A stretch of DNA of 7,974 nt from a virus (lineage: Duplodnaviria > Heunggongvirae > Uroviricota > Caudoviricetes): the IMG/VR virus record IMGVR_UViG_2648501437_000023; one strand, written 5' to 3'. The position numbers and the translations under genes are program-made. The notes beneath the pieces were generated by a model that was given only the letters and a program-made list of their open reading frames with translations, ran no database searches and was not told where the DNA came from. Below, piece by piece: positions 1 through 7,974 of the stretch; positions within the stretch are counted from its first letter, which is position 1; each line of letters opens with the position of its first letter.

Positions 1-1
1 G

Positions 2-73
2 TACCGCAAAATTCTCGCGGACACTGAGCAGGAAAAGCACCTGAAAAAATTACGAGCCATAAAAAGGAAGTAA
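2..73 (+). CDS. 3' end of an upstream ORF truncated by the window edge (product unknown)
   Basis: Frame open from the window start to TAA at 71-73 (…YRKILADTEQEKHLKKLRAIKRK*). Too short to assign; listed only because it abuts the next small ORF in the same orientation. Confidence 0.2.
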   Translation, partial: YRKILADTEQEKHLKKLRAIKRK

Positions 74-76
74 AGA

Positions 77-223
77 ATGAATAAAGCATTTGAACAATGG
101 GTCCACCAGCGTTACGGCAATCGCTATGACCTGACGCGAGATGTTGACGGCTTCTACTGTCGTGAAGTTGTGAAGCGAATGTTTGACGTGTGGTGCCACT
201 GCCGTGGGCTGAGTGTTATGTGA
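77..223 (+). CDS. small hypothetical protein (48 aa), prophage-associated
   Basis: ATG at 77 to TGA at 221-223 (MNKAFEQWVHQRYGNRYDLTRDVDGFYCREVVKRMFDVWCHCRGLSVM). Not in the supplied ORF track (below its length cutoff). Same strand as, and tightly packed against, the downstream xis-like gene. No family recognised. Confidence 0.35.
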   Translation: MNKAFEQWVHQRYGNRYDLTRDVDGFYCREVVKRMFDVWCHCRGLSVM

Positions 224-231
224 GGTGATGT

Positions 232-441
232 ATGGGGCTGGATTGCGTGCCTATATCAACCTACTGCCGCGACGCGGGAGAAACGGTTGATGCCGTTAAC
301 AAACGGATACAAAGAGGAATATGGAAAGAAGGGGTTCATGTATTAAAAGTCGACGGAGTTAAAGAACGCTGGGTCGACTTAATAGAGGTTTCAAAATGGG
401 CAAGAAAGAACAAGGATTATTATCTCTGCCAAGAGGAGTAA
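232..441 (+). CDS. excisionase-like small DNA-binding protein (putative Xis / recombination directionality factor)
   Basis: 69-aa ORF immediately upstream of, and overlapping by 46 nt, a tyrosine integrase on the same strand. GAGGTGA Shine-Dalgarno at 223-229. Size, basic/aromatic composition and position match prophage Xis-like proteins; the family call is from memory, not a search. Confidence 0.5.
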   Translation: MGLDCVPISTYCRDAGETVDAVNKRIQRGIWKEGVHVLKVDGVKERWVDLIEVSKWARKNKDYYLCQEE

Positions 442-1574
442 CTATTCGTAAGCATAAAACTGCTTCAACACTAGTTATCACTTTCACATATAAAGGGGTT
501 CTTTGCAGGGAGCCCCTGTCTCGGCTTGAGGCAAATACACGTGGTATTAAATATGCTGAGCGCCTGCTAGGGGAGATACAAAATCAGATCGCCAGCGGAA
601 CGTTTGAATATGCGAAATATTTCCCCAGTTCCAAAAAACTGGAGTTATTCGGTGTAGTAAAGAAAACCAAAAATATTAAGTCCTATCTTGATGAATACCT
701 GAAAATTTGCATGAACCGCAATCTGTCGCCGTCAACCATTGGCGGTTACGAAAAATGTCTATCAGCACTATCAGAACTACATAAACTACATGTAACAGAA
801 TTGACGCCTGCGGTACTAAAAAATTGGATAGCCAGCCGAAAAACTAAGCTGAAAACAATCAGGAATAACCTGTCATTTCTGCGCAGCGCCATTGATGAGG
901 CTGTAACTGATGGCCTGTTGACTATTAACCCGGTAACTCTTGTCAGCGCCAGCCGGTATCACGTGGTCGACAGTAAACCGAACGCCGACGATTACGAAGT
1001 TGATCCGTTTGCGCCTGCGGAAACCAGTGCCATATATCAGCACTGCAAGTATCAGGAATGGCAGAATCTGTTCCGCTTCGCCTTCAATACAGGGCTACGC
1101 AGCTCTGAGCTATGCGCATTACGTTGGACCGATATCGACTTTATAGGTAATACAGCGCACATACAGGCGGCCAGTGTCGTAGGGGTACTTAAAGGCACCA
1201 AGACAAAAGCCGGTACCCGTAAGGTGGAGCTGAACAGTGAGGCGCTGGCGGCCCTGCAGGCGCAGAAGCAATACACCTTTATGAAAAGTGAGTTCATATT
1301 CAGCGATCCGAAAACGGGAGATCCCTGGACGAACGCCGACGCTATCCGTAAAAAAGCATGGGTGCCGACCCTGAAAAAAGCTGGTGTGCGCTACCGTAAC
1401 CCGTACCAGACGCGCCACACATTCGCCACCAGACACATTAGCCAGGGTGTAAACCTTTTCTGGCTTGCCGGGCAGATGGGGCATAAGGGGCCGGAAATGC
1501 TGTTCCGCAATTACGGTAAATACCTGGCTGAATACGACGGGAAAACCGCAATGGAATCTGGAATGACTCAATAA
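396..1574 (+). CDS. int: tyrosine recombinase (phage integrase family)
   Basis: 392-aa ORF with AGAGG Shine-Dalgarno 7 nt upstream of ATG 396. C-terminal catalytic signature visible in the translation: GLRSSEL (box I Arg), TRHTFATRH, GHKG, and terminal RNYGKY (nucleophile Tyr). N-terminus (LPRGVTIRKHK…FTYKG) resembles the arm-type DNA-binding domain of enterobacterial prophage integrases. Confidence 0.9.
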   Translation: MGKKEQGLLSLPRGVTIRKHKTASTLVITFTYKGVLCREPLSRLEANTRGIKYAERLLGEIQNQIASGTFEYAKYFPSSKKLELFGVVKKTKNIKSYLDEYLKICMNRNLSPSTIGGYEKCLSALSELHKLHVTELTPAVLKNWIASRKTKLKTIRNNLSFLRSAIDEAVTDGLLTINPVTLVSASRYHVVDSKPNADDYEVDPFAPAETSAIYQHCKYQEWQNLFRFAFNTGLRSSELCALRWTDIDFIGNTAHIQAASVVGVLKGTKTKAGTRKVELNSEALAALQAQKQYTFMKSEFIFSDPKTGDPWTNADAIRKKAWVPTLKKAGVRYRNPYQTRHTFATRHISQGVNLFWLAGQMGHKGPEMLFRNYGKYLAEYDGKTAMESGMTQ

Positions 1575-1652
1575 GACGTTTTTCGCCAAATGGCGTAATG
1601 TTCAAGTCCTTGTTATATGAAGGTATTAACGCAGGAGCCATTCAGCAACCTT

Positions 1653-1994
1653 TTAATGGTAGTTAATTTCCCTGTAGTTCTTCTGCATGTATAGAGCAAT
1701 TGCCGCTTCAATTTTCTTCAGCAGATTACTGCTTACATACTGAGGATACTGATCTGCTGGCTTCACAACATAGCGCAATTTTTCTTTGTTCATGGCGATC
1801 TCAGCGAACGGGATCACGTCACCGTCACGAACCTCATTGTTCAATGTCACAATAAACAGCTGACGTGCCGGGGAGACACGATCACTCAGTCTTCTCACGA
1901 AGAACTCGTTTGCTGTGTTTGAGTCAACAAAAGAACTGACGAGTTGAGTCCGACGCTCAATCGTCTGTATCGATCTTCTCGCTACTGTTCTCAT
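1653..1994 (-). CDS. hypothetical protein (113 aa) between int and the att site; possible moron/cargo gene
   Basis: Minus-strand ORF with AGGAG Shine-Dalgarno (plus-strand CTCCT at 2001-2005) 6 nt upstream of its ATG (1992-1994). Convergent with int. No recognisable motifs. Confidence 0.5.
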   Translation of the reverse strand: MRTVARRSIQTIERRTQLVSSFVDSNTANEFFVRRLSDRVSPARQLFIVTLNNEVRDGDVIPFAEIAMNKEKLRYVVKPADQYPQYVSSNLLKKIEAAIALYMQKNYREINYH

Positions 1995-2010
1995 GCTAGT
2001 CTCCTCAACA

Positions 2011-2071
2011 CTTCACTGGCTGTGCAGTGAAGGTACAAAAAGCCACTGATGATAACAGCGTCATCAGTGGC
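2011..2071 (-). terminator. two adjacent perfect hairpins; the second is followed by a T5 run on the minus strand (possible intrinsic terminator or structured leader)
   Basis: Hairpin 1: cttcactg (2011-2018) / cagtgaag (2025-2032), 8-bp stem, 6-nt loop. Hairpin 2: gccactgatga (2042-2052) / tcatcagtggc (2061-2071), 11-bp perfect stem, 8-nt loop; plus-strand AAAAA at 2037-2041 gives TTTTT directly 3' of the hairpin on the minus strand. Sits just upstream of the minus-strand gene 1653-1994. Confidence 0.3.
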
Positions 2072-2323
2072 CCTTGATGGTGATAACCGCAGTTACCTAA
2101 ATAGTATGATATTACCTTACGGGTAATTCTTCAACGATTGCTCTGAATTGAATAGTCTTGAAGTGCTATGAACAGCACAAAACAGCGCTAATCACCGCCC
2201 CAGTGGCGCCTAAACACTTCAAAATGTTGGACAGAATCAGGACGTTAGAGGTACTACAATATGCACGTAAAATGCACGTGAGGTATTTTAAATTAGAAAA
2301 ATCATTAATATTCAATTGGTTAA

Positions 2324-2364
2324 GAATTTTTCGGATACGGGTTCAACTCCCGCCAGCTCCACCA
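2324..2364 (+). other. ssrA: 3'-terminal fragment of tmRNA (ssrA): T-arm, acceptor 3' strand and CCA; att-site remnant, not an intact tmRNA gene
   Basis: tcggatacgggttcaactcccgccagctccacca matches the enterobacterial tmRNA 3' end as I recall it (…TCGGACGCGGGTTCAACTCCCGCCAGCTCCACCA) with two substitutions. The ~320 nt upstream (2000-2320) contains no tmRNA 5' acceptor strand or tag-peptide reading frame, so only the 3' end is present. Confidence 0.7.
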
Positions 2365-2400
2365 CTTTTTAGTTGTTTGAAGTTCAATGAAGTCTACTAA

Positions 2401-2432
2401 GCCCACACAGCACAAGCTCTGCGGGCTTTTTT
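2401..2432 (+). terminator. possible rho-independent terminator downstream of the ssrA 3' fragment
   Basis: Imperfect hairpin gcccacacag (2401-2410) / ctctgcgggc (2417-2426), 8 of 10 positions paired, followed by TTTTTT at 2427-2432. Confidence 0.35.
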
Positions 2433-2489
2433 ACGTCTATTGTCGTCCAGTGAGAATTGCTGAGAACTACGAGTTATGGCACCCTGAAT

Positions 2490-2526
2490 GGGACCCACTA
2501 AGAAGGGTCCAAAAACCGAGGGTCCC
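2490..2526. promoter_or_regulatory. GGGACCC … GGGTCC … GGGTCCC repeat set overlapping the integrase ribosome-binding site
   Basis: GGGACCC at 2490-2496 is the exact reverse complement of GGGTCCC at 2520-2526; a direct GGGTCC copy sits at 2505-2510, each followed by an A-run. The distal copy overlaps the GAGGG Shine-Dalgarno (2518-2522) of the integrase start at 2530. Confidence 0.25.
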
Positions 2527-2529
2527 AAA

Positions 2530-3759
2530 ATGGCAAAAATCGCTAAGAAGCTCACTGACACTGAAATCAAAAGCACCAAGCCAGCCGATAAAGAAATCAA
2601 CTTGTTTGACGGTGATGGTCTGATTCTACGAATCGCTCCTTTGGCGAAAGGAGGCAAGAAAAATTGGTATTTCAGGTATGCAGTACCAGTGAGCAAGAAA
2701 AGAACCAAAATGAGCCTTGGGACATATCCTCACCTTACCCTTGCAAGAGCCAGAGCCTTACGTGATGAATATCTCTCCTTTCTGGCAAATGGTGTTGATC
2801 CCCAAATCCATAACAACGATAAGGCGAAGGCATTAAAGAGTGCTACTGAGCACACTCTCCAAGCCGTAGCGCGGAAATGGTTAGATGAGAAGGTAAAGAC
2901 ATCAGGTATCTCACAAGACCATGCAGCAGACATCTGGCGCAGCTTAGAGAGAAATGTCTTTCCCGGTCTGGGTAATGTCCCTATCAATGAGATCCGACCT
3001 AAGCTCTTAAAACAACACCTTGATCCTATTGAGCAACGAGGCGTATTGGAAACTCTACGCCGTATCATTTCACGTCTGAATGAAATCTTCCGGTGGGCAG
3101 CTACTGAAGAACTTATTGAGTTCAACCCGGCTGACAACCTTGGTCAAAGATTCAGTAAACCAAAAAAGCAAAATATGCCTGCCCTTCCCCCAAGCGAATT
3201 GCCAAGGTTTATGGAATCTTTGACGAATGCGTCAATCCGGTTGGAAACACGTATGCTAATTGAATGGCAATTGTTGACATGGGTTCGTCCGGGTGAAGCC
3301 GTTCGCGCAAGGTGGTCTGATATTGATACAACCAACAGCATTTGGAACATTCCTGCTGATTTCATGAAAATGAAAAAGCTTCACAAAGTTCCTTTGAGTA
3401 AAGAAGCTTTGCGCATCCTTGAATTAATGAAATCAATAAGTGGGCATAGAGAATGGGTTTTCCCCAGCATAAAAGCGCCTCTTAATCATATGCATGAACA
3501 AACAGCCAACGCAGCTATCATCCGAATGGGGTTCGGAGGCGAGCTTGTAGCTCACGGTATGCGTTCTATTGCACGAACAGCGGCAGAGGAGTCTGGTAAA
3601 TTCAGAGCTGAAGTTCTTGAGGCAGCGCTTGCCCACTCGAAAAAAGATGAAATTATCGCAGCATACAATCGTGCAGAATATCTGATAGAGCGACAGAGTT
3701 TGATGCAATGGTGGAGTGATTACGTTCAAGCTCAAAGATCAAATGCTCTGGTAGCCTAA
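2530..3759 (+). CDS. int: P4-type (IntA/CP4-57-like) tyrosine integrase
   Basis: N-terminus MAKIAKKLTDTEIKSTKPADKEINLFDGDGLILRI matches the P4-family arm-binding domain. Catalytic motifs VRPGEAVRARWSDID, AHGMRSIART, LAHS, AYNRAEY. GAGGG Shine-Dalgarno 7 nt upstream of ATG 2530; the track's 2488 start adds 14 residues with no RBS, so 2530 is preferred. Lies about 165 bp downstream of the ssrA 3' fragment, the typical ssrA-int arrangement. Confidence 0.9.
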   Translation: MAKIAKKLTDTEIKSTKPADKEINLFDGDGLILRIAPLAKGGKKNWYFRYAVPVSKKRTKMSLGTYPHLTLARARALRDEYLSFLANGVDPQIHNNDKAKALKSATEHTLQAVARKWLDEKVKTSGISQDHAADIWRSLERNVFPGLGNVPINEIRPKLLKQHLDPIEQRGVLETLRRIISRLNEIFRWAATEELIEFNPADNLGQRFSKPKKQNMPALPPSELPRFMESLTNASIRLETRMLIEWQLLTWVRPGEAVRARWSDIDTTNSIWNIPADFMKMKKLHKVPLSKEALRILELMKSISGHREWVFPSIKAPLNHMHEQTANAAIIRMGFGGELVAHGMRSIARTAAEESGKFRAEVLEAALAHSKKDEIIAAYNRAEYLIERQSLMQWWSDYVQAQRSNALVA

Positions 3760-3797
3760 GTATCAGAATAGCTAATATAATCCTGAAGGTAAAGAAA

Positions 3798-4214
3798 ATG
3801 GAAACCCTATTCAAAGTTTTTGAAAAATTTAGTTCCAGACCACTTTTTTTTATTTTTTTCGGACTCTCACTTTGTGAATTTTTTCAGAAACAATCTGTTC
3901 TGATGAATCCATCAGCAGATAACATCGCGAAATTATTCGCAGCCATGATATTAGTTGTTTTTTTTACTTGGGGATTTGAATGGCTAATCTTCAAGTTCAA
4001 TGTAAACCTTGAACCTCATGATCAAGGCGATATTGGACCAACAATTGGAACGGCTACTTTAGCTGTATACTTAGTTTATGCCTTTCACTTTCTCAGTGAA
4101 AATCCTGAAGCATTAAATTTAAAGTTATTAACTAACTCTGGCTTTATATACAGCACAACTCTATTATTATTCTCATTAGAATGCATGAAGCTTAGAAGAC
4201 TTAAACAAAAATAA
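3798..4214 (+). CDS. small integral membrane protein (138 aa, 3-4 predicted TM helices), function unknown
   Basis: Hydrophobic stretches PLFFIFFGLSLCEFF, IAKLFAAMILVVFFTWGF, IGTATLAVYLVYAFHFL, GFIYSTTLLLFSL. AT-rich like the downstream operon. Weak RBS, so start and expression are uncertain. Confidence 0.45.
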   Translation: METLFKVFEKFSSRPLFFIFFGLSLCEFFQKQSVLMNPSADNIAKLFAAMILVVFFTWGFEWLIFKFNVNLEPHDQGDIGPTIGTATLAVYLVYAFHFLSENPEALNLKLLTNSGFIYSTTLLLFSLECMKLRRLKQK

Positions 4215-4285
4215 ACAACATCATTGTGATGATAAATATAAAATAGGCATGGCGAAAAAAAATCACCACGCCTAAAATATAATAA

Positions 4286-6052
4286 TTATGGTAGCATCAT
4301 TGATACATAATCCACACCAATCCTTGAGCTATACTGAGACGCTATAGCCTGATATCTTTCTGCATAACCAGTTCTCAGTTGAGATTTAAGTTTGAGTCGG
4401 ACAGGAACATTTTGCACGTTGCCATCCATATTACTTAAAAACACGGCAGAAATAATATTTTTTTCTTCGCCATCAACTGTTGTTCCATGATTCAACACCA
4501 CCATATAATCAACAACAGGAAGCGTTTTATCCCCTTCGAAAATAGAGAGATATTTTCTTTGATTTTTATGCATTACATATATATATTTCGAATGTTCAGC
4601 AAATGGCAATGCTTTACTCTGACTGGCGTTAAAAAGCTCCAGAACTTTAATGAGCCTGTGCGGACTTAATCTTACATGGTGAGGGTCGTTACCCTGAGTA
4701 GGAACCAAATCACATGCCGCAGATACACATAAATACCATTTGTTCGACTCTGTATCAAAGAAAATAGTGCCAGTAGAAATATGACCATCTTCAAAATTCT
4801 TTGAAGACAAATTCATATTTAAAGCATGATACATTTCGTGATAAGTATCATTATTTGATGGCAGATCCATTTTTGAAGAGCAATATTGGAGCAATGCAGC
4901 AACTCCGCTGTTAGCGTATTCATTTGAATAGCTATCAAAAACACTTTTGATAAATTCATCCAGCGTATTATTATTTTTAAGTCTTTGATAAAGCTCTTCT
5001 GATAAATTACCAAATACAAAGTCAATATTTCTACATCTAATATCAGGCGAGTCTGATTTTAATATCTCATTTAACCACGCAGCTTGACCGTAATGATCGT
5101 TAGCCAAATGATTTACAAAAGATAAAGCCTCAGCTTCGATTGCATTCTGAATTTCAGATTTTATTAACTGATAATAAGATGGTTTCCATTCAATGAGAGA
5201 ATCATTGAGAGTTTGCCAAATCCTATCTCCATCGTTTTCATGATCATCTTGAACCTTATGAAATAGGGAGACAAAGATATTACCACATTGAATCCATTTT
5301 ACTCCGCTTTCATCACCCCGAATGACATTGCCAGATGTGTTGCTAGAAATAATTGCATTTCTAGACACAGCATATTCTGCAATCATTTTTGCAATGAAGT
5401 TTTTATCCTTTTGTTCCTCCAACACAGCATCATCATGTATTAATCTTTTAATTCTTCTACAAGGCTTACTGTCTTTAATATAGGCTATTGTTTCATCTCT
5501 TGTGAGAGCTTTATTACCATTATCATTTAAGTTCGGTAATACAACGTCTTCCCAATAACTTTGGACATCTTCATTATCGTAGTCAATGATCAAGCTGTTG
5601 ATATCCAGAGCACCTTTGAGAGTCGATGATATCTGCATCCAAACCGTTTCTAAATTCTCTCTAGTATATATTACAATCATATTTAAATGATCGGAGTCTT
5701 TCAAATCTTGTAATAGTTTAAGTGTTTTATCAGGTGCATTATTATCAAGATGATAATCTACAATAATAAGATCTGATTTTCTAATCCGATCCACATCGAA
5801 ATTAACAGAACCATTGTCAACATCACAAATCATATTTTTAGATTGAAAAAAGCTCTCAAGAGTAGCGGCTCGTTTAGATGAGTCAATTTTGTTGTAGTCT
5901 AAATCAACTTCGTTATTCAACGCCCTGATTGATTCAGAATACGTCAGAAAATCGTCATCAATCATGACAACGGAACGAATTGCATTTTCGCAGAAAGTTT
6001 TCTGGACAAGAGAATTATAATTTGCCACTGTCATATTAGAACTCCACTCCAT
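4286..6052 (-). CDS. response-regulator-like protein: N-terminal receiver (REC) domain plus ~450-aa C-terminal domain of unknown function (candidate effector)
   Basis: 588-aa ORF. REC hallmarks: VVMIDDD (acidic pair, D32-D34), DLIIVDYHLDNNAPDKTLKLL (phospho-acceptor Asp D99; codon checked at 5756-5758), NMIVIYT (conserved Thr), STLK (Lys). Rest of the protein shows no HTH or other recognisable output motif. Alternative start at 6034 (MTVANY…) has a GGAG Shine-Dalgarno 7 nt upstream and sits 1 nt after the kinase stop. Confidence 0.8.
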   Translation of the reverse strand: MEWSSNMTVANYNSLVQKTFCENAIRSVVMIDDDFLTYSESIRALNNEVDLDYNKIDSSKRAATLESFFQSKNMICDVDNGSVNFDVDRIRKSDLIIVDYHLDNNAPDKTLKLLQDLKDSDHLNMIVIYTRENLETVWMQISSTLKGALDINSLIIDYDNEDVQSYWEDVVLPNLNDNGNKALTRDETIAYIKDSKPCRRIKRLIHDDAVLEEQKDKNFIAKMIAEYAVSRNAIISSNTSGNVIRGDESGVKWIQCGNIFVSLFHKVQDDHENDGDRIWQTLNDSLIEWKPSYYQLIKSEIQNAIEAEALSFVNHLANDHYGQAAWLNEILKSDSPDIRCRNIDFVFGNLSEELYQRLKNNNTLDEFIKSVFDSYSNEYANSGVAALLQYCSSKMDLPSNNDTYHEMYHALNMNLSSKNFEDGHISTGTIFFDTESNKWYLCVSAACDLVPTQGNDPHHVRLSPHRLIKVLELFNASQSKALPFAEHSKYIYVMHKNQRKYLSIFEGDKTLPVVDYMVVLNHGTTVDGEEKNIISAVFLSNMDGNVQNVPVRLKLKSQLRTGYAERYQAIASQYSSRIGVDYVSMMLP

Positions 6053-7754
6053 TGAACTGGATCACAAAATTAGCGCCATCTTTTATTAAATAGTTATCGC
6101 CTTCATCAGGTTCTGAATACCATATTTTATGATGTGCAACAGCAAGGTTTTCTCGACATAGATACAGACCTACCCCATGTCCATTTGCTCTTTTGCTATA
6201 AAATAGTTCAAATAGTCGCGGGATATCATCGGTATCAATTGCCGGACCAGAATTTGCTATGATAACCAAAGAATTCACAAAACCAATCTTTATGAGCCTA
6301 TTATTTGACAGACTGACCCAATACATTGCATTGTTGATAATATTAGTAAAAACAGGATAGATCCTTGATGGTATATCTGTTATTGCGATTTGCTTAAACT
6401 CTTCACTAAATTCAATAGTTATTCGTTGCCGTTCGAAACGCTCCCCAAAGAACTTCAGGACATAATCCATGATATTTTTTCCAGTTATTCTCTGCCTGGA
6501 TTGATAACCTGATATTTTCAAAGGTGATAAGAAACGTATTTGTTGAGTAAGCGATCTGTGAGCATTTAACGCCAATGAAAAACCAGGGTGTTCTTTTACA
6601 GAAGTAGGAAGAGAGTTTAGTCCTCTGGTTACCATAGAATCCATTTCTTCAAGTTCATGAGATATTATCTCAACACTAATACCTAACTGTGCAAGCGCGT
6701 TTAAACTTTTAGCTTTTTCTTCAAAATATGAGCGTTCTTCTTCAGATAATGAGAATGCTGAATCTAAGTTTATACCTTCAAATAATCTATCGAGACCTTT
6801 TATTATTGATTGATATTTGAAAGTTAGGGTATCAACTGACTCAACATATAAACTATCGAGCAAATTAAACACATTTTCAATTTGTGAATCATTATCTATT
6901 GAATCAACAACTGATATAGTTTTAGCATAATAATCACTTCGATCATCCTTTATTTCATCGGCCCATTTTTTTAAAAGAGAATGTATCTTCTCCTCTATCG
7001 TGTTATTAAACTTAGTTAGTTTAGAATTAATAATACCTTGATTTTTTTCAAGGTGATTTTTCGCTGACAATGAAGGCTCAAGTTTATTTAATTCAGAATC
7101 AAGTTTATTAATTGCTAACTTCATTTGTAGAATATACGCAGAGAACTCATTAAATTTATCTCTGTAGTCTCTATATTTCTCTTCATACATTCCAAGTTTT
7201 GGAGGTTTGATAGGCGTTTTAATTTCACTGCGCAACGCATCTAAGTTTGTAAGATCACTGTCTATAATTTTAAGATAGTTTAAATCTAACGAACCATCAG
7301 TTTTATCAAGCTTAGTTTTCAGCCTTTTAACAGCCTCCAAGGAAGCATCAAGAACTGGTGTCTGATTCTTCAAAGCTTCTGAAAAACTTTTTTGTGTTGA
7401 TTTTCGAGCTTGTTGTTGAGCAGATTTTCTTAACTCTTTTTCACGCTTAACTTGTTCTAAAAGCTCTTTACGGTCATCAGAACGTGAACCAAAAAATCTA
7501 TCAGCAAGTTCAGTTAACAAATTAGATATAATAGTTTTCAGTTCTCTTGCAGCCTGGTTTCTTATGAATCCCTCTCTCCCCGACTTATCTTTCAGCTCTT
7601 TATTACTGGATTGAGTAATTCCAATATAACCAAAAATCCTTCTATTAGACCAATAATATCGCCCTGCATTCCATGAACGTCTTTCTTCTATCTGGAAGAA
7701 ATCATTATCTACTCGACCATAAGGTAATACTCTCAAGCTATCCCTAAAAATCAT
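6036..7754 (-). CDS. soluble histidine-kinase-like protein: ~350-aa coiled-coil-rich N-terminal region, HisKA-like H-box, HATPase_c domain
   Basis: 572-aa ORF. H-box GISVEIISHELEEM (His366; codon checked at 6657-6659). N-box PVFTNIINNAMYW, G1 IANSGPAID, F-box LFELFYSKR, G2 GHGVGL (codons checked at 6165-6182). No hydrophobic TM segments; N-terminal half is K/E/L-rich. Stop overlaps the start of the downstream REC gene. Confidence 0.8.
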   Translation of the reverse strand: MIFRDSLRVLPYGRVDNDFFQIEERRSWNAGRYYWSNRRIFGYIGITQSSNKELKDKSGREGFIRNQAARELKTIISNLLTELADRFFGSRSDDRKELLEQVKREKELRKSAQQQARKSTQKSFSEALKNQTPVLDASLEAVKRLKTKLDKTDGSLDLNYLKIIDSDLTNLDALRSEIKTPIKPPKLGMYEEKYRDYRDKFNEFSAYILQMKLAINKLDSELNKLEPSLSAKNHLEKNQGIINSKLTKFNNTIEEKIHSLLKKWADEIKDDRSDYYAKTISVVDSIDNDSQIENVFNLLDSLYVESVDTLTFKYQSIIKGLDRLFEGINLDSAFSLSEEERSYFEEKAKSLNALAQLGISVEIISHELEEMDSMVTRGLNSLPTSVKEHPGFSLALNAHRSLTQQIRFLSPLKISGYQSRQRITGKNIMDYVLKFFGERFERQRITIEFSEEFKQIAITDIPSRIYPVFTNIINNAMYWVSLSNNRLIKIGFVNSLVIIANSGPAIDTDDIPRLFELFYSKRANGHGVGLYLCRENLAVAHHKIWYSEPDEGDNYLIKDGANFVIQFNGVEF

Positions 7755-7974
7755 TAGTCCTGCATACTTTTTGGCCTTAAGATCAAAGTGGGAATGTTCA
7801 CGTTCAGTATGTGATGTATTTTGTGAAAGGAATTCAAACGTTCCTATCTGAAGCTCAAATGGGCCGACCCCTGCGTGATCCTACCCACGTAATATGGACA
7901 CAGGCCTAAGCGAGGTTCTTGTTTTCAAATTGTTCCGGACTGAGGCCGCCACACCAACTGTGCCGCCGCCACCG

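Follow-up and report, generated by a model that had tools for sequence, protein, structure and literature searches.

An IS3-truncated HEF_HK-family kinase gene in an E. coli island and the helical region that the truncation leaves behind

The region at positions 6660..7754 of the window (the whole stretch of 7,974 nt analyzed here) corresponds to residues 417-781 of a soluble, 988-residue protein of the HEF_HK family that is decapitated in this copy; taken as a whole, this explanation, a deletion together with a transmitter role for the remaining helices, is in our view probable. The truncation of the kinase gene and the internal position of the region are close to certain. The missing kinase 5' end and the missing methyltransferase gene are due to an IS3-associated deletion in the E. 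coli island, and what is left of the kinase is an ordinary truncated remnant of an already known family. HEF_HK/Response_reg_2 proteins, soluble and linked to restriction-modification, were described computationally in 2021 (Bellieny-Rabelo, Pretorius & Moleleki, Genome Biol Evol, PMC8011034), in a paper that gives no account of the middle helical region and says nothing of truncations; no experimental work on the family was found in the literature searched. The features of the window are, in order of position:

2488..3759 (+) P4-type tyrosine integrase of the carrier island (Pfam Arm-DNA-bind_3, Phage_int_M, Phage_integrase)
3798..4214 (+) 138-aa hydrophobic protein, convergent with the receiver gene (PHROG 6556, function unknown)
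4286..6034 (-) Response_reg_2 receiver-like protein, 582 aa, or 588 aa from an earlier ATG (Pfam PF19192, E 3.6e-31)
6036..7875 (-) kinase gene remnant (paraMORC/HEF_HK, 988-codon parent), codons 377-988 plus stop, from translation and alignment
6036..7754 (-) annotated kinase ORF, 572 aa, RefSeq WP_000577254 'ATP-binding protein', from the ORF list and annotation
6039..6494 (-) catalytic ATP-binding (CA) domain, HATPase_c, residues 837-988 (Pfam PF02518, E 2.2e-11)
6513..6686 (-) HEF_HK dimerisation/phospho-acceptor (DHp) domain, residues 773-830 (Pfam PF19191)
6687..7556 (-) helical-bundle rod of seven long amphipathic helices, residues 483-772, from AF2 models and conservation
7557..7874 (-) small alpha/beta segment, residues 377-482, from secondary structure and invariant columns
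7876..7974 (-) end of an IS3 element, terminal 99 bp, end TGATCCTACCCACGTAATATGG..., from sequence reading and E. coli matches

The truncation point of the kinase gene lies at 7875/7876. In translation, the kinase frame is open 5' of the annotated ATG as far as 7874, and an in-frame TAG at 7881-7883, within the IS3 end, shuts it upstream; the region that the preliminary description had called N-terminal is thus internal, the frame continuing upstream until IS3. DNA homology to intact kinase genes ends at 7876, the start of IS3: window positions 2329..7876 align with the intact locus L002 (16673..11127) at 98.96% identity, and the alignment stops there. Orthologues at 99% identity from Klebsiella, Serratia and Salmonella are 988 aa long and carry PF13589 (HATPase_c_3) at the N-terminus. 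Lost here are the first 375-376 codons, comprising the whole ATP-binding GHKL domain, and the upstream C5 cytosine methyltransferase gene. E. coli matches that cover the IS3 end alone number in the thousands, and an 'IS3 family transposase' is annotated beside it. The right edge of the window falls inside the element, a full copy of which (1258 bp, 10977..12234) is present in locus L001, where it is flanked by gcg on one side and gaa on the other, the 3-bp target duplication is absent, and the far flank is a truncated alpha-amylase pseudogene. Upstream of the remnant, the IS3 transposase gene points in the same direction as the kinase gene, and read-through transcription of the remnant could come from IS3. 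The methylase and the 5' part of the kinase gene were found in none of 5,426 complete E. coli genomes, and at least 80% of the remnant-junction query was present in 559 complete E. coli genomes. Since the IS3-associated deletion removed both the GHKL domain and the methyltransferase, the E. coli remnant is most likely a non-functional or deregulated relic rather than a sensor.

The 572-aa ORF is real, as the preliminary description stated, and starts merely at the first internal ATG. This ATG is codon M417 of the full-length protein (the full-length relative P0004 reads MIFRD at 417), Met occupies the position in 13 of 59 diverse representatives, and the stretch separating the ATG from the IS3 end showed no promoter-like site. 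Most E. coli copies keep the 572-codon frame intact, and one 90% cluster comprises 2,075 member sequences. A natural short isoform made from a conserved internal start was rejected because M417 is not conserved; likewise, the '572-aa' genes of Salmonella are not a short isoform, as their frames run uninterrupted for 994-996 codons. Databases contain so many entries of the truncated E. coli form that the same internal start has been assigned to intact Salmonella genes. In PMC8011034, 34 of 222 family members are listed without the N-terminal domain; at least some entries of this kind are start mis-annotations, which may inflate that class. There is a weak sign of relaxed constraint on the remnant, which differs from L002 by five nonsynonymous and four synonymous codon differences, the corresponding ratios being 2:12 for the receiver gene and 2:22 for the integrase gene (Fisher p = 0.007 for the remnant against the pooled neighbors); the signal is weak because all five nonsynonymous differences sit in the fastest-evolving segment.

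Pfam finds HATPase_c_3, HEF_HK and HATPase_c in 40 of 40 diverse family members. The flagged region matches 937 representatives, and in those of about 960-1010 aa its position is invariably about residues 380-790. Full-length relatives carry the invariant Bergerat residues E32, N36, D61, G63, G65 and G104-L111, none of which is encoded in the window, and a profile of the full-length family searched against the PDB matches MutL/PMS2/Hsp90 at the N-terminus and histidine kinases at the C-terminus. The C-terminal core keeps its motifs. The PF19191 match (E 9.7e-06, 26.4 bits, cutoff 24.1) contains the candidate phospho-histidine H782 in the motif SHELEE at 6657-6659, invariant in 59 of 59 representatives, and the CA domain retains the invariant residues of the N box (N887, N891) and the G2 box (G941, G943, G945). 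The combined DHp and CA core matches class I histidine kinases in Foldseek (E 6e-09 to 1e-07) and in PDB profile searches (down to E 1.8e-19). The flagged region as originally delimited, ending at 6660, stops one codon short of the phospho-acceptor, numbered H366 in the ORF and H782 in the full-length protein.

The composition claimed for the region was borne out: the first 365 aa of the ORF (6660..7754) are rich in L, K, S and E (L 11.8%, K 10.1%, S 10.1%, E 8.5%). So was the lack of a hydrophobic segment in a hydropathy scan, where the highest Kyte-Doolittle mean over 19 residues reaches 0.71 within the region and 1.38 across the whole ORF, against a usual threshold of 1.6 for calling a membrane helix. 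Full-length P0004 also peaks at 1.38, and values of at least 1.6 occur in 7 of 262 full-length relatives, at scattered positions that include the inside of the catalytic domain. Together with the prediction of a membrane helix in no HEF_HK family member (PMC8011034), this agrees with the cytoplasmic location proposed earlier. The region is likewise without an assigned domain, both Pfam matches of the ORF (HEF_HK and HATPase_c) lying C-terminal of it and none of 40 diverse family members giving a Pfam match within it. Transmembrane helices, a periplasmic sensor fold and homology to a housekeeping sensor were looked for and none was found; no PAS, GAF, HAMP, Cache or 4HB_MCP sensor profile or fold was recognized in the region, and a PDB sequence search with it gave nothing meaningful (colicin E9 at E 0.1).

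The structure of the region is composite. AF2 predicts it to be about 80% helical (mean pLDDT 80), in keeping with the helical part of the claim of some 350 coiled-coil-rich, heptad-like residues; its first 66 or so residues, by contrast, are conserved alpha/beta. Conservation across the family is highest in residues 417-482 (entropy 0.83 bits; 1.25-2.10 in other parts), with R424, P427, G429, D434, R442, N467, K473, R476, E477, G478 and N482 invariant. We infer that residues 377-482, with 417-482 as a putative S5-fold transducer, close the ATPase module on its C-terminal side; the half of the module that binds ATP is missing from this copy. The bulk of the flagged region is the rod, which shows the highest sequence variability in the protein (2.10 bits) at a length that is constant across the family. 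Its last helix, 746-780, continues straight into DHp helix 1, which carries H782, and its six helix breaks hold conserved Pro/Gly residues, for example TPxKPPK at 596-602. Fold matches of the rod are generic antiparallel bundles (spectrin, STAT, BAG), with no known sensor fold among them. In a profile search of the PDB, the middle region matched apolipoprotein-like amphipathic helices only; the apolipoprotein and designed three-helix-bundle matches were dismissed as compositional. A full-length AF2 model computed from 34 close sequences is poor (pLDDT 60, below 50 at the N-terminus) and served only to place helix boundaries and to match the fold of the kinase core. Because the flagged helices are the least conserved part, are generic and bundle-like, and lie between the ATPase module and the phospho-histidine helix, a role as transmitter or spacer suits them better than one in ligand sensing.

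In intact proteins, residues 417-482 would complete the N-terminal ATPase module, and the rod, residues 483-772, may link autophosphorylation on H782 to the state of the ATPase. Like its MutL/MORC relatives, the ATPase probably dimerises on DNA in an ATP-driven manner; phosphotransfer from H782 to the Response_reg_2 protein would come next, and the output would lie in the C-terminal part of that protein. On balance, we lean slightly towards this transmitter mechanism of the rod. Alternatively, the helices of the region could form a canonical, parallel coiled coil between two chains of a dimer, one long signaling helix continuous with the DHp domain. Histidine kinases are dimers, the last rod helix flows into DHp helix 1, a register-dependent coiled coil would require just such a constant length, and ORF residues 197-238 pass a heptad test against composition-matched shuffles, albeit with a crude, home-made score. 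The rest of the region does not beat the shuffles, though, the family-averaged hydrophobic period of the long helices peaks at 3.6-3.7 rather than 3.5, and the Pro/Gly breaks interrupt the helix six times, so that this arrangement appears unlikely; the AF2 model is a monomer and accommodates an intramolecular bundle and a dimeric coiled coil equally. It is much more doubtful that the variable rod serves in recognition, with a surface shaped by diversifying selection that acts as a decoy or target for phage inhibitors or binds phage proteins directly. The rod is the most variable segment yet strictly conserved in length, it contains all five of the amino-acid changes that separate the window from the Serratia/Klebsiella allele, and the island is mobile with restriction-modification neighbors (PMC8011034). 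A plain structural spacer would also show high variability with a retained amphipathic pattern, however, and between two intact alleles dN of the rod is 0.16 with saturated synonymous sites (dS >1, in the sole estimable segment), from which it follows that the rod is under purifying selection overall.

We consider it highly unlikely that the 572-aa protein functions on its own as a cytoplasmic kinase, its ~350 helical N-terminal residues detecting a cue inside the cell, for instance a phage component, and signaling to the Response_reg_2 protein. Several observations speak for it: the ORF is intact and near-identical across hundreds of E. coli genomes, its DHp and CA motifs are complete, the region has neither a membrane helix nor an assigned domain, the partner gene, also intact, differs from the Serratia/Klebsiella allele by 2 nonsynonymous and 12 synonymous changes, and the reported minority architecture without the N-terminal domain (PMC8011034) suggests that shorter forms might be viable. 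Yet the start is the poorly conserved internal codon described above, with no promoter-like site upstream; the upstream frame is cut by IS3, with the target duplication absent; the first 66 residues make up one, invariant half of a module that has lost its other half; and the helices are the least conserved part, with generic fold matches. A link to phage sensing found no backing in PADLOC-DB v2, where neither the kinase remnant (best the unrelated model PD-T4-6, E 0.028, 11.3 bits) nor the receiver protein (best C3a59, E 0.0026, 15.8 bits) has a significant match, or in experimental papers within the literature searched. PADLOC, NCBIfam and PHROGs gave no functional assignment, and PHROG 8137/7659 re-find the same E. 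coli proteins with function unknown. The place that a sensor would take in intact proteins is filled by the GHKL (paraMORC-type) ATPase, and the sensor idea is unsupported for the E. coli copy. We attach very little probability to a rewired remnant, in which IS3 read-through and initiation at M417 yield a kinase that signals through the intact Response_reg_2 protein while its rod meets an intracellular (e.g., phage) cue; in a weaker version, specificity in intact systems would be set by the rod and not by the GHKL domain.

The receiver gene, annotated 'response regulator receiver domain', begins 1 nt past the kinase stop, and the kinase-receiver gene order is the same in intact islands; about 400 aa at the C-terminus of the receiver protein have no domain assignment, and a PDB sequence search with this protein returned zero matches. 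The 138-aa gene stands beside the receiver gene in every related island examined (L002, L003, L005, L006), and the same integrase occurs in L002, adjoining smpB. The C5 DNA methyltransferase gene of intact islands overlaps the kinase-like gene by 20 nt in L002-L004 and lies upstream of it in L005-L006. The intact unit comprises three genes, encoding a C5 methyltransferase, a GHKL-ATPase/histidine-kinase fusion and a receiver-effector, and could reasonably be proposed as a conflict system linked to methylation. For the window, the analysis corrects an annotation-level illusion, in which the 3' two-thirds of a gene pass for a whole soluble kinase equipped with a novel N-terminal sensor; the Serratia/Klebsiella/Salmonella version, not the E. 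coli remnant, is the proper form for testing the function of the HEF_HK system.

Among known systems, the locus is closest in content to the HEF_HK/Response_reg_2 pairs of PMC8011034, with which it shares a kinase-like gene carrying PF19191 and PF02518, a PF19192 neighbor, gene order, a soluble product and, in intact relatives, an upstream C5 methyltransferase. The E. coli copy differs in lacking the N-terminal HATPase_c_3 and the methyltransferase, and it would score as 'group 2' of that paper, though it is a remnant. The full-length relatives resemble MORC/paraMORC ATPases (Iyer, Abhiman & Aravind 2008, PMC2292703) in their N-terminal GHKL domain with invariant Bergerat-fold motifs, in their profile matches to MutL/PMS2 (E 5e-06) and in adjoining cytosine methylases; the window kinase, unlike these, has no GHKL domain, and none of the paraMORC1-5 families has a C-terminal histidine-kinase core (PMC2292703). 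Soluble class I histidine kinases (ThkA, HK853, the CpxA cytoplasmic core, NtrB) share the DHp and CA core and the His-Glu phospho-acceptor motif, whereas the HEF_HK input is a GHKL ATPase plus a rod of ~290 residues instead of PAS/GAF/HAMP/Cache, and the partner is a divergent receiver without a DNA-binding output domain. The methylation-associated defence system (MADS) was considered and found unrelated, as the sole 'histidine kinase' in the MADS paper is an island boundary gene. In Shedu of the VcSduA/paraMORC3 type (Nat Microbiol 2025, PMC12137116), as in intact HEF_HK proteins, a GHKL ATPase is N-terminal; there, a middle clamp-like domain is proposed to control the C-terminal effector, a DUF4263 nuclease on the same chain, and defence was shown experimentally. 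The output of the HEF_HK system is instead a kinase core plus a separate receiver protein. Detocs is a two-component-like anti-phage system in which a cytoplasmic histidine-kinase-like sensor phosphorylates a receiver-effector during infection. The HEF_HK system shares with it the idea of a cytoplasmic kinase-like sensor paired with a receiver-effector and differs from it in domain content and in its methyltransferase linkage.

The minus-strand ORF at window 6036..7754 encodes 572 aa, with the HEF_HK phospho-acceptor and HATPase_c catalytic domains assigned by Pfam to its C-terminal third. The preliminary description treated its first 365 residues (6660..7754) as the K/E/L-rich N-terminal region of a kinase, free of membrane helices and without an assigned domain. 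The composition (L 11.8%, K 10.1%, S 10.1%, E 8.5%) bears this out; the 19-residue Kyte-Doolittle mean reaches a maximum of 0.71 in this region and 1.38 across the ORF, hence no membrane-spanning segment is present, and Pfam detected no domain in the first 365 residues. These sequence features are real, but the interpretation was built on a false premise about the protein start: upstream of the ATG the translated frame stays open for 40 further sense codons (...AGVGPFELQIGTFEF...KKYAGL-MIFRD...) and is closed by an in-frame TAG, which falls within the terminal inverted repeat of IS3; this element occupies window 7876..7974.

A protein search identified relatives of 988-991 aa in Klebsiella, Serratia and Salmonella; their identity to the translated stretch is 99% over its entire length, and they have an additional HATPase_c_3 (PF13589) domain at the N-terminus. 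The DNA of L002, an intact smpB/ssrA-linked island, shares 98.96% identity with window 2329..7876, and this match ends exactly at the IS3 end; therefore, 1,126 nt (375-376 codons) are missing from the 5' end of the window gene, and the Met annotated as its start corresponds to residue 417 of the full protein. Likewise absent is a C5 cytosine methyltransferase gene, which in intact islands shares 20 nt with the beginning of the kinase-like gene. The window gene is a truncated member of a family that has been described but is experimentally uncharacterised. At least 80% of a remnant-plus-junction query was present in 559 of 5,426 complete E. coli genomes, and the methylase and 5' part of this allele in none of them.

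In L001, a complete genome holding the full 1,258-bp IS3 copy (10977-12234), the element is flanked by gcg and gaa, and thus no 3-bp target duplication is present. A truncated gene adjoins it on either side: the kinase remnant on one, a 5'-truncated alpha-amylase pseudogene beside glaH-lhgO-gabDTP on the other. The missing duplication together with truncated genes on both sides is what an IS3-associated deletion leaves behind, as opposed to a simple insertion, and indicates that the deletion took away the remainder of the island, with the methylase and the relaxase region present in L002. We speculate that loss of the methylase and the ATP-binding half of the input module in one deletion would be expected if methylase loss alone were harmful.

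Whether a 572-aa form occurs naturally was considered separately. The position of M417 is Met in 13 of 59 diverse representatives, and no sigma-70-like site was found in the stretch from the IS3 end to the ATG. Entries of 572 aa exist for several other species and at first seemed to be independent support; this was rejected in two Salmonella enterica assemblies (L005, 3993-6980; L006, 2247-5234), where the frame is uninterrupted over 994-996 codons and the annotated start alone is internal, at the M417 equivalent, leaving about 1.25 kb 'empty' after the methylase gene. These starts were probably propagated from the very abundant truncated E. coli cluster.

When the 365-aa region was searched against 1.84 billion representatives, 937 relatives were found, and in those of about 960-1010 aa its position is invariably near residues 380-790. 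Across 59 such proteins aligned with one another (25-52% identity), the following residues are invariant:

GHKL motifs: E32, N36, D61, G63, G65, G104-L111
Segment 417-482: R424, P427, G429, D434, R442, N467, K473, R476, E477, G478, N482
Segment 483-771: none
Phospho-acceptor domain (DHp): Q772, G774, E778, H782
Catalytic domain (CA) boxes: N887, N891, G941, G943, G945

Residues 417-482 are the most conserved stretch of the protein (column entropy 0.83 bits) and 483-772 the least conserved (2.10 bits), the latter being of fixed length, given a gap fraction of 0.00. AlphaFold2 modeling (131-sequence alignment, mean pLDDT 80) predicted a small alpha/beta piece at 377-481 and seven helices (482-504, 509-567, 574-593, 604-638, 643-700, 705-741, 746-780), the last continuing into the H782 helix; a poorer-quality full-length model gave the same boundaries. 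A home-made heptad score exceeded shuffles only around ORF residues 197-238, and the hydrophobic periodicity of the long helices, averaged over the family, has its maximum at 3.6-3.7 residues, not 3.5. The family profile matched PDB histidine kinases in its C-terminal part (E 1.8e-19) and MutL/PMS2 and Hsp90 in its N-terminal part (E 5e-06 and weaker); matches in the middle were limited to apolipoproteins and designed three-helix bundles, which we read as amphipathic-helix composition. Taken together, 'helical-bundle rod' appears a better description of the predicted helices than 'coiled-coil-rich', at the monomer level.

The kinase core with its invariant His is present, and the receiver-like partner gene starts 1 nt past the kinase stop. 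Intact relatives have the N-terminal GHKL domain and the overlapping methyltransferase gene. We hypothesize that the GHKL domain and the conserved 300-482 segment could form a MutL/MORC-like ATPase closing on DNA, whose state would be passed by the fixed-length rod to the DHp, controlling autophosphorylation on H782. The phosphoryl group would then move to the Response_reg_2 protein and switch on its C-terminal part, while the methyltransferase would mark self DNA. The remnant, deprived of the methyltransferase and of the ATP-binding half of its input module, cannot operate by this proposed mechanism. Compared with the Serratia/Klebsiella allele, the remnant has 5 nonsynonymous and 4 synonymous codon differences; the corresponding counts are 2:12 for the receiver gene and 2:22 for the integrase (remnant versus pooled neighbours, Fisher p = 0.007). 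This hint at relaxed constraint is weak, since the rod, which evolves fast, contains all five nonsynonymous changes. When two intact alleles are compared, dN in the rod is 0.16 and synonymous sites are saturated; the rod is thus under purifying, not diversifying, selection overall.

The roughly 400 aa following the receiver domain (window 4286-5490), presumed to be the output or effector of the system, had no sequence match in Pfam, NCBIfam, PADLOC or PDB. The gene at window 3798-4214 (plus strand) is convergent with the receiver gene, and its 138-aa product has several hydrophobic segments. It occupies the same place in every related island examined (L002, L003, L005, L006), among them the Salmonella allele of 83% identity, and may be either one more component of the system or an independent passenger. 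G+C is 29-37% over about 3750-7750 (the 138-aa, receiver and kinase genes) whereas the integrase modules to the left have 42-54%, consistent with a foreign origin of this cargo. Sub-threshold Rfam matches at 2273-2432 (tmRNA 3' end, 18.6 bits, E 2e-4; IsrM, 53 bits) fall where homology to L002 starts (window 2329), and this segment is probably what is left of an ssrA-derived attachment site separating two integrated elements in tandem. The second, unrelated integration module (window 232-1994) comprises:

Excisionase-like ORF of 69 aa and, overlapping it, a lambda-type integrase of 392 aa (Arm-DNA-bind_2)
Minus-strand ORF of 113 aa without a family match

Window 1-2500, which spans this module, the attachment region and the integrase start, was present over at least 80% of its length in only 10 of 5,426 complete E. 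coli genomes.

A literature search found no experimental study of the HEF_HK/Response_reg_2 system, PADLOC has no model for it, and MADS proved unrelated. The definition of both Pfam families goes back to Bellieny-Rabelo et al. 2021 (PMC8011034), where the helical middle region is not described and truncations are not mentioned; start-site propagation may inflate the 'no N-terminal domain' class of that survey. The intact system in other genomes merits experimental work. In the survey, Response_reg_2 proteins adjoin HEF_HK proteins in 91.6% of 644 regions, no family member has a predicted membrane helix, and HATPase_c_3 + HEF_HK + HATPase_c is the commonest architecture (174/222); C5 methylases are often upstream, and restriction-modification genes are enriched nearby (PMC8011034). 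Its authors proposed paraMORC ATPases as the ancestry of the family and suggested that the sensor position is held by the N-terminal GHKL domain (PMC8011034).
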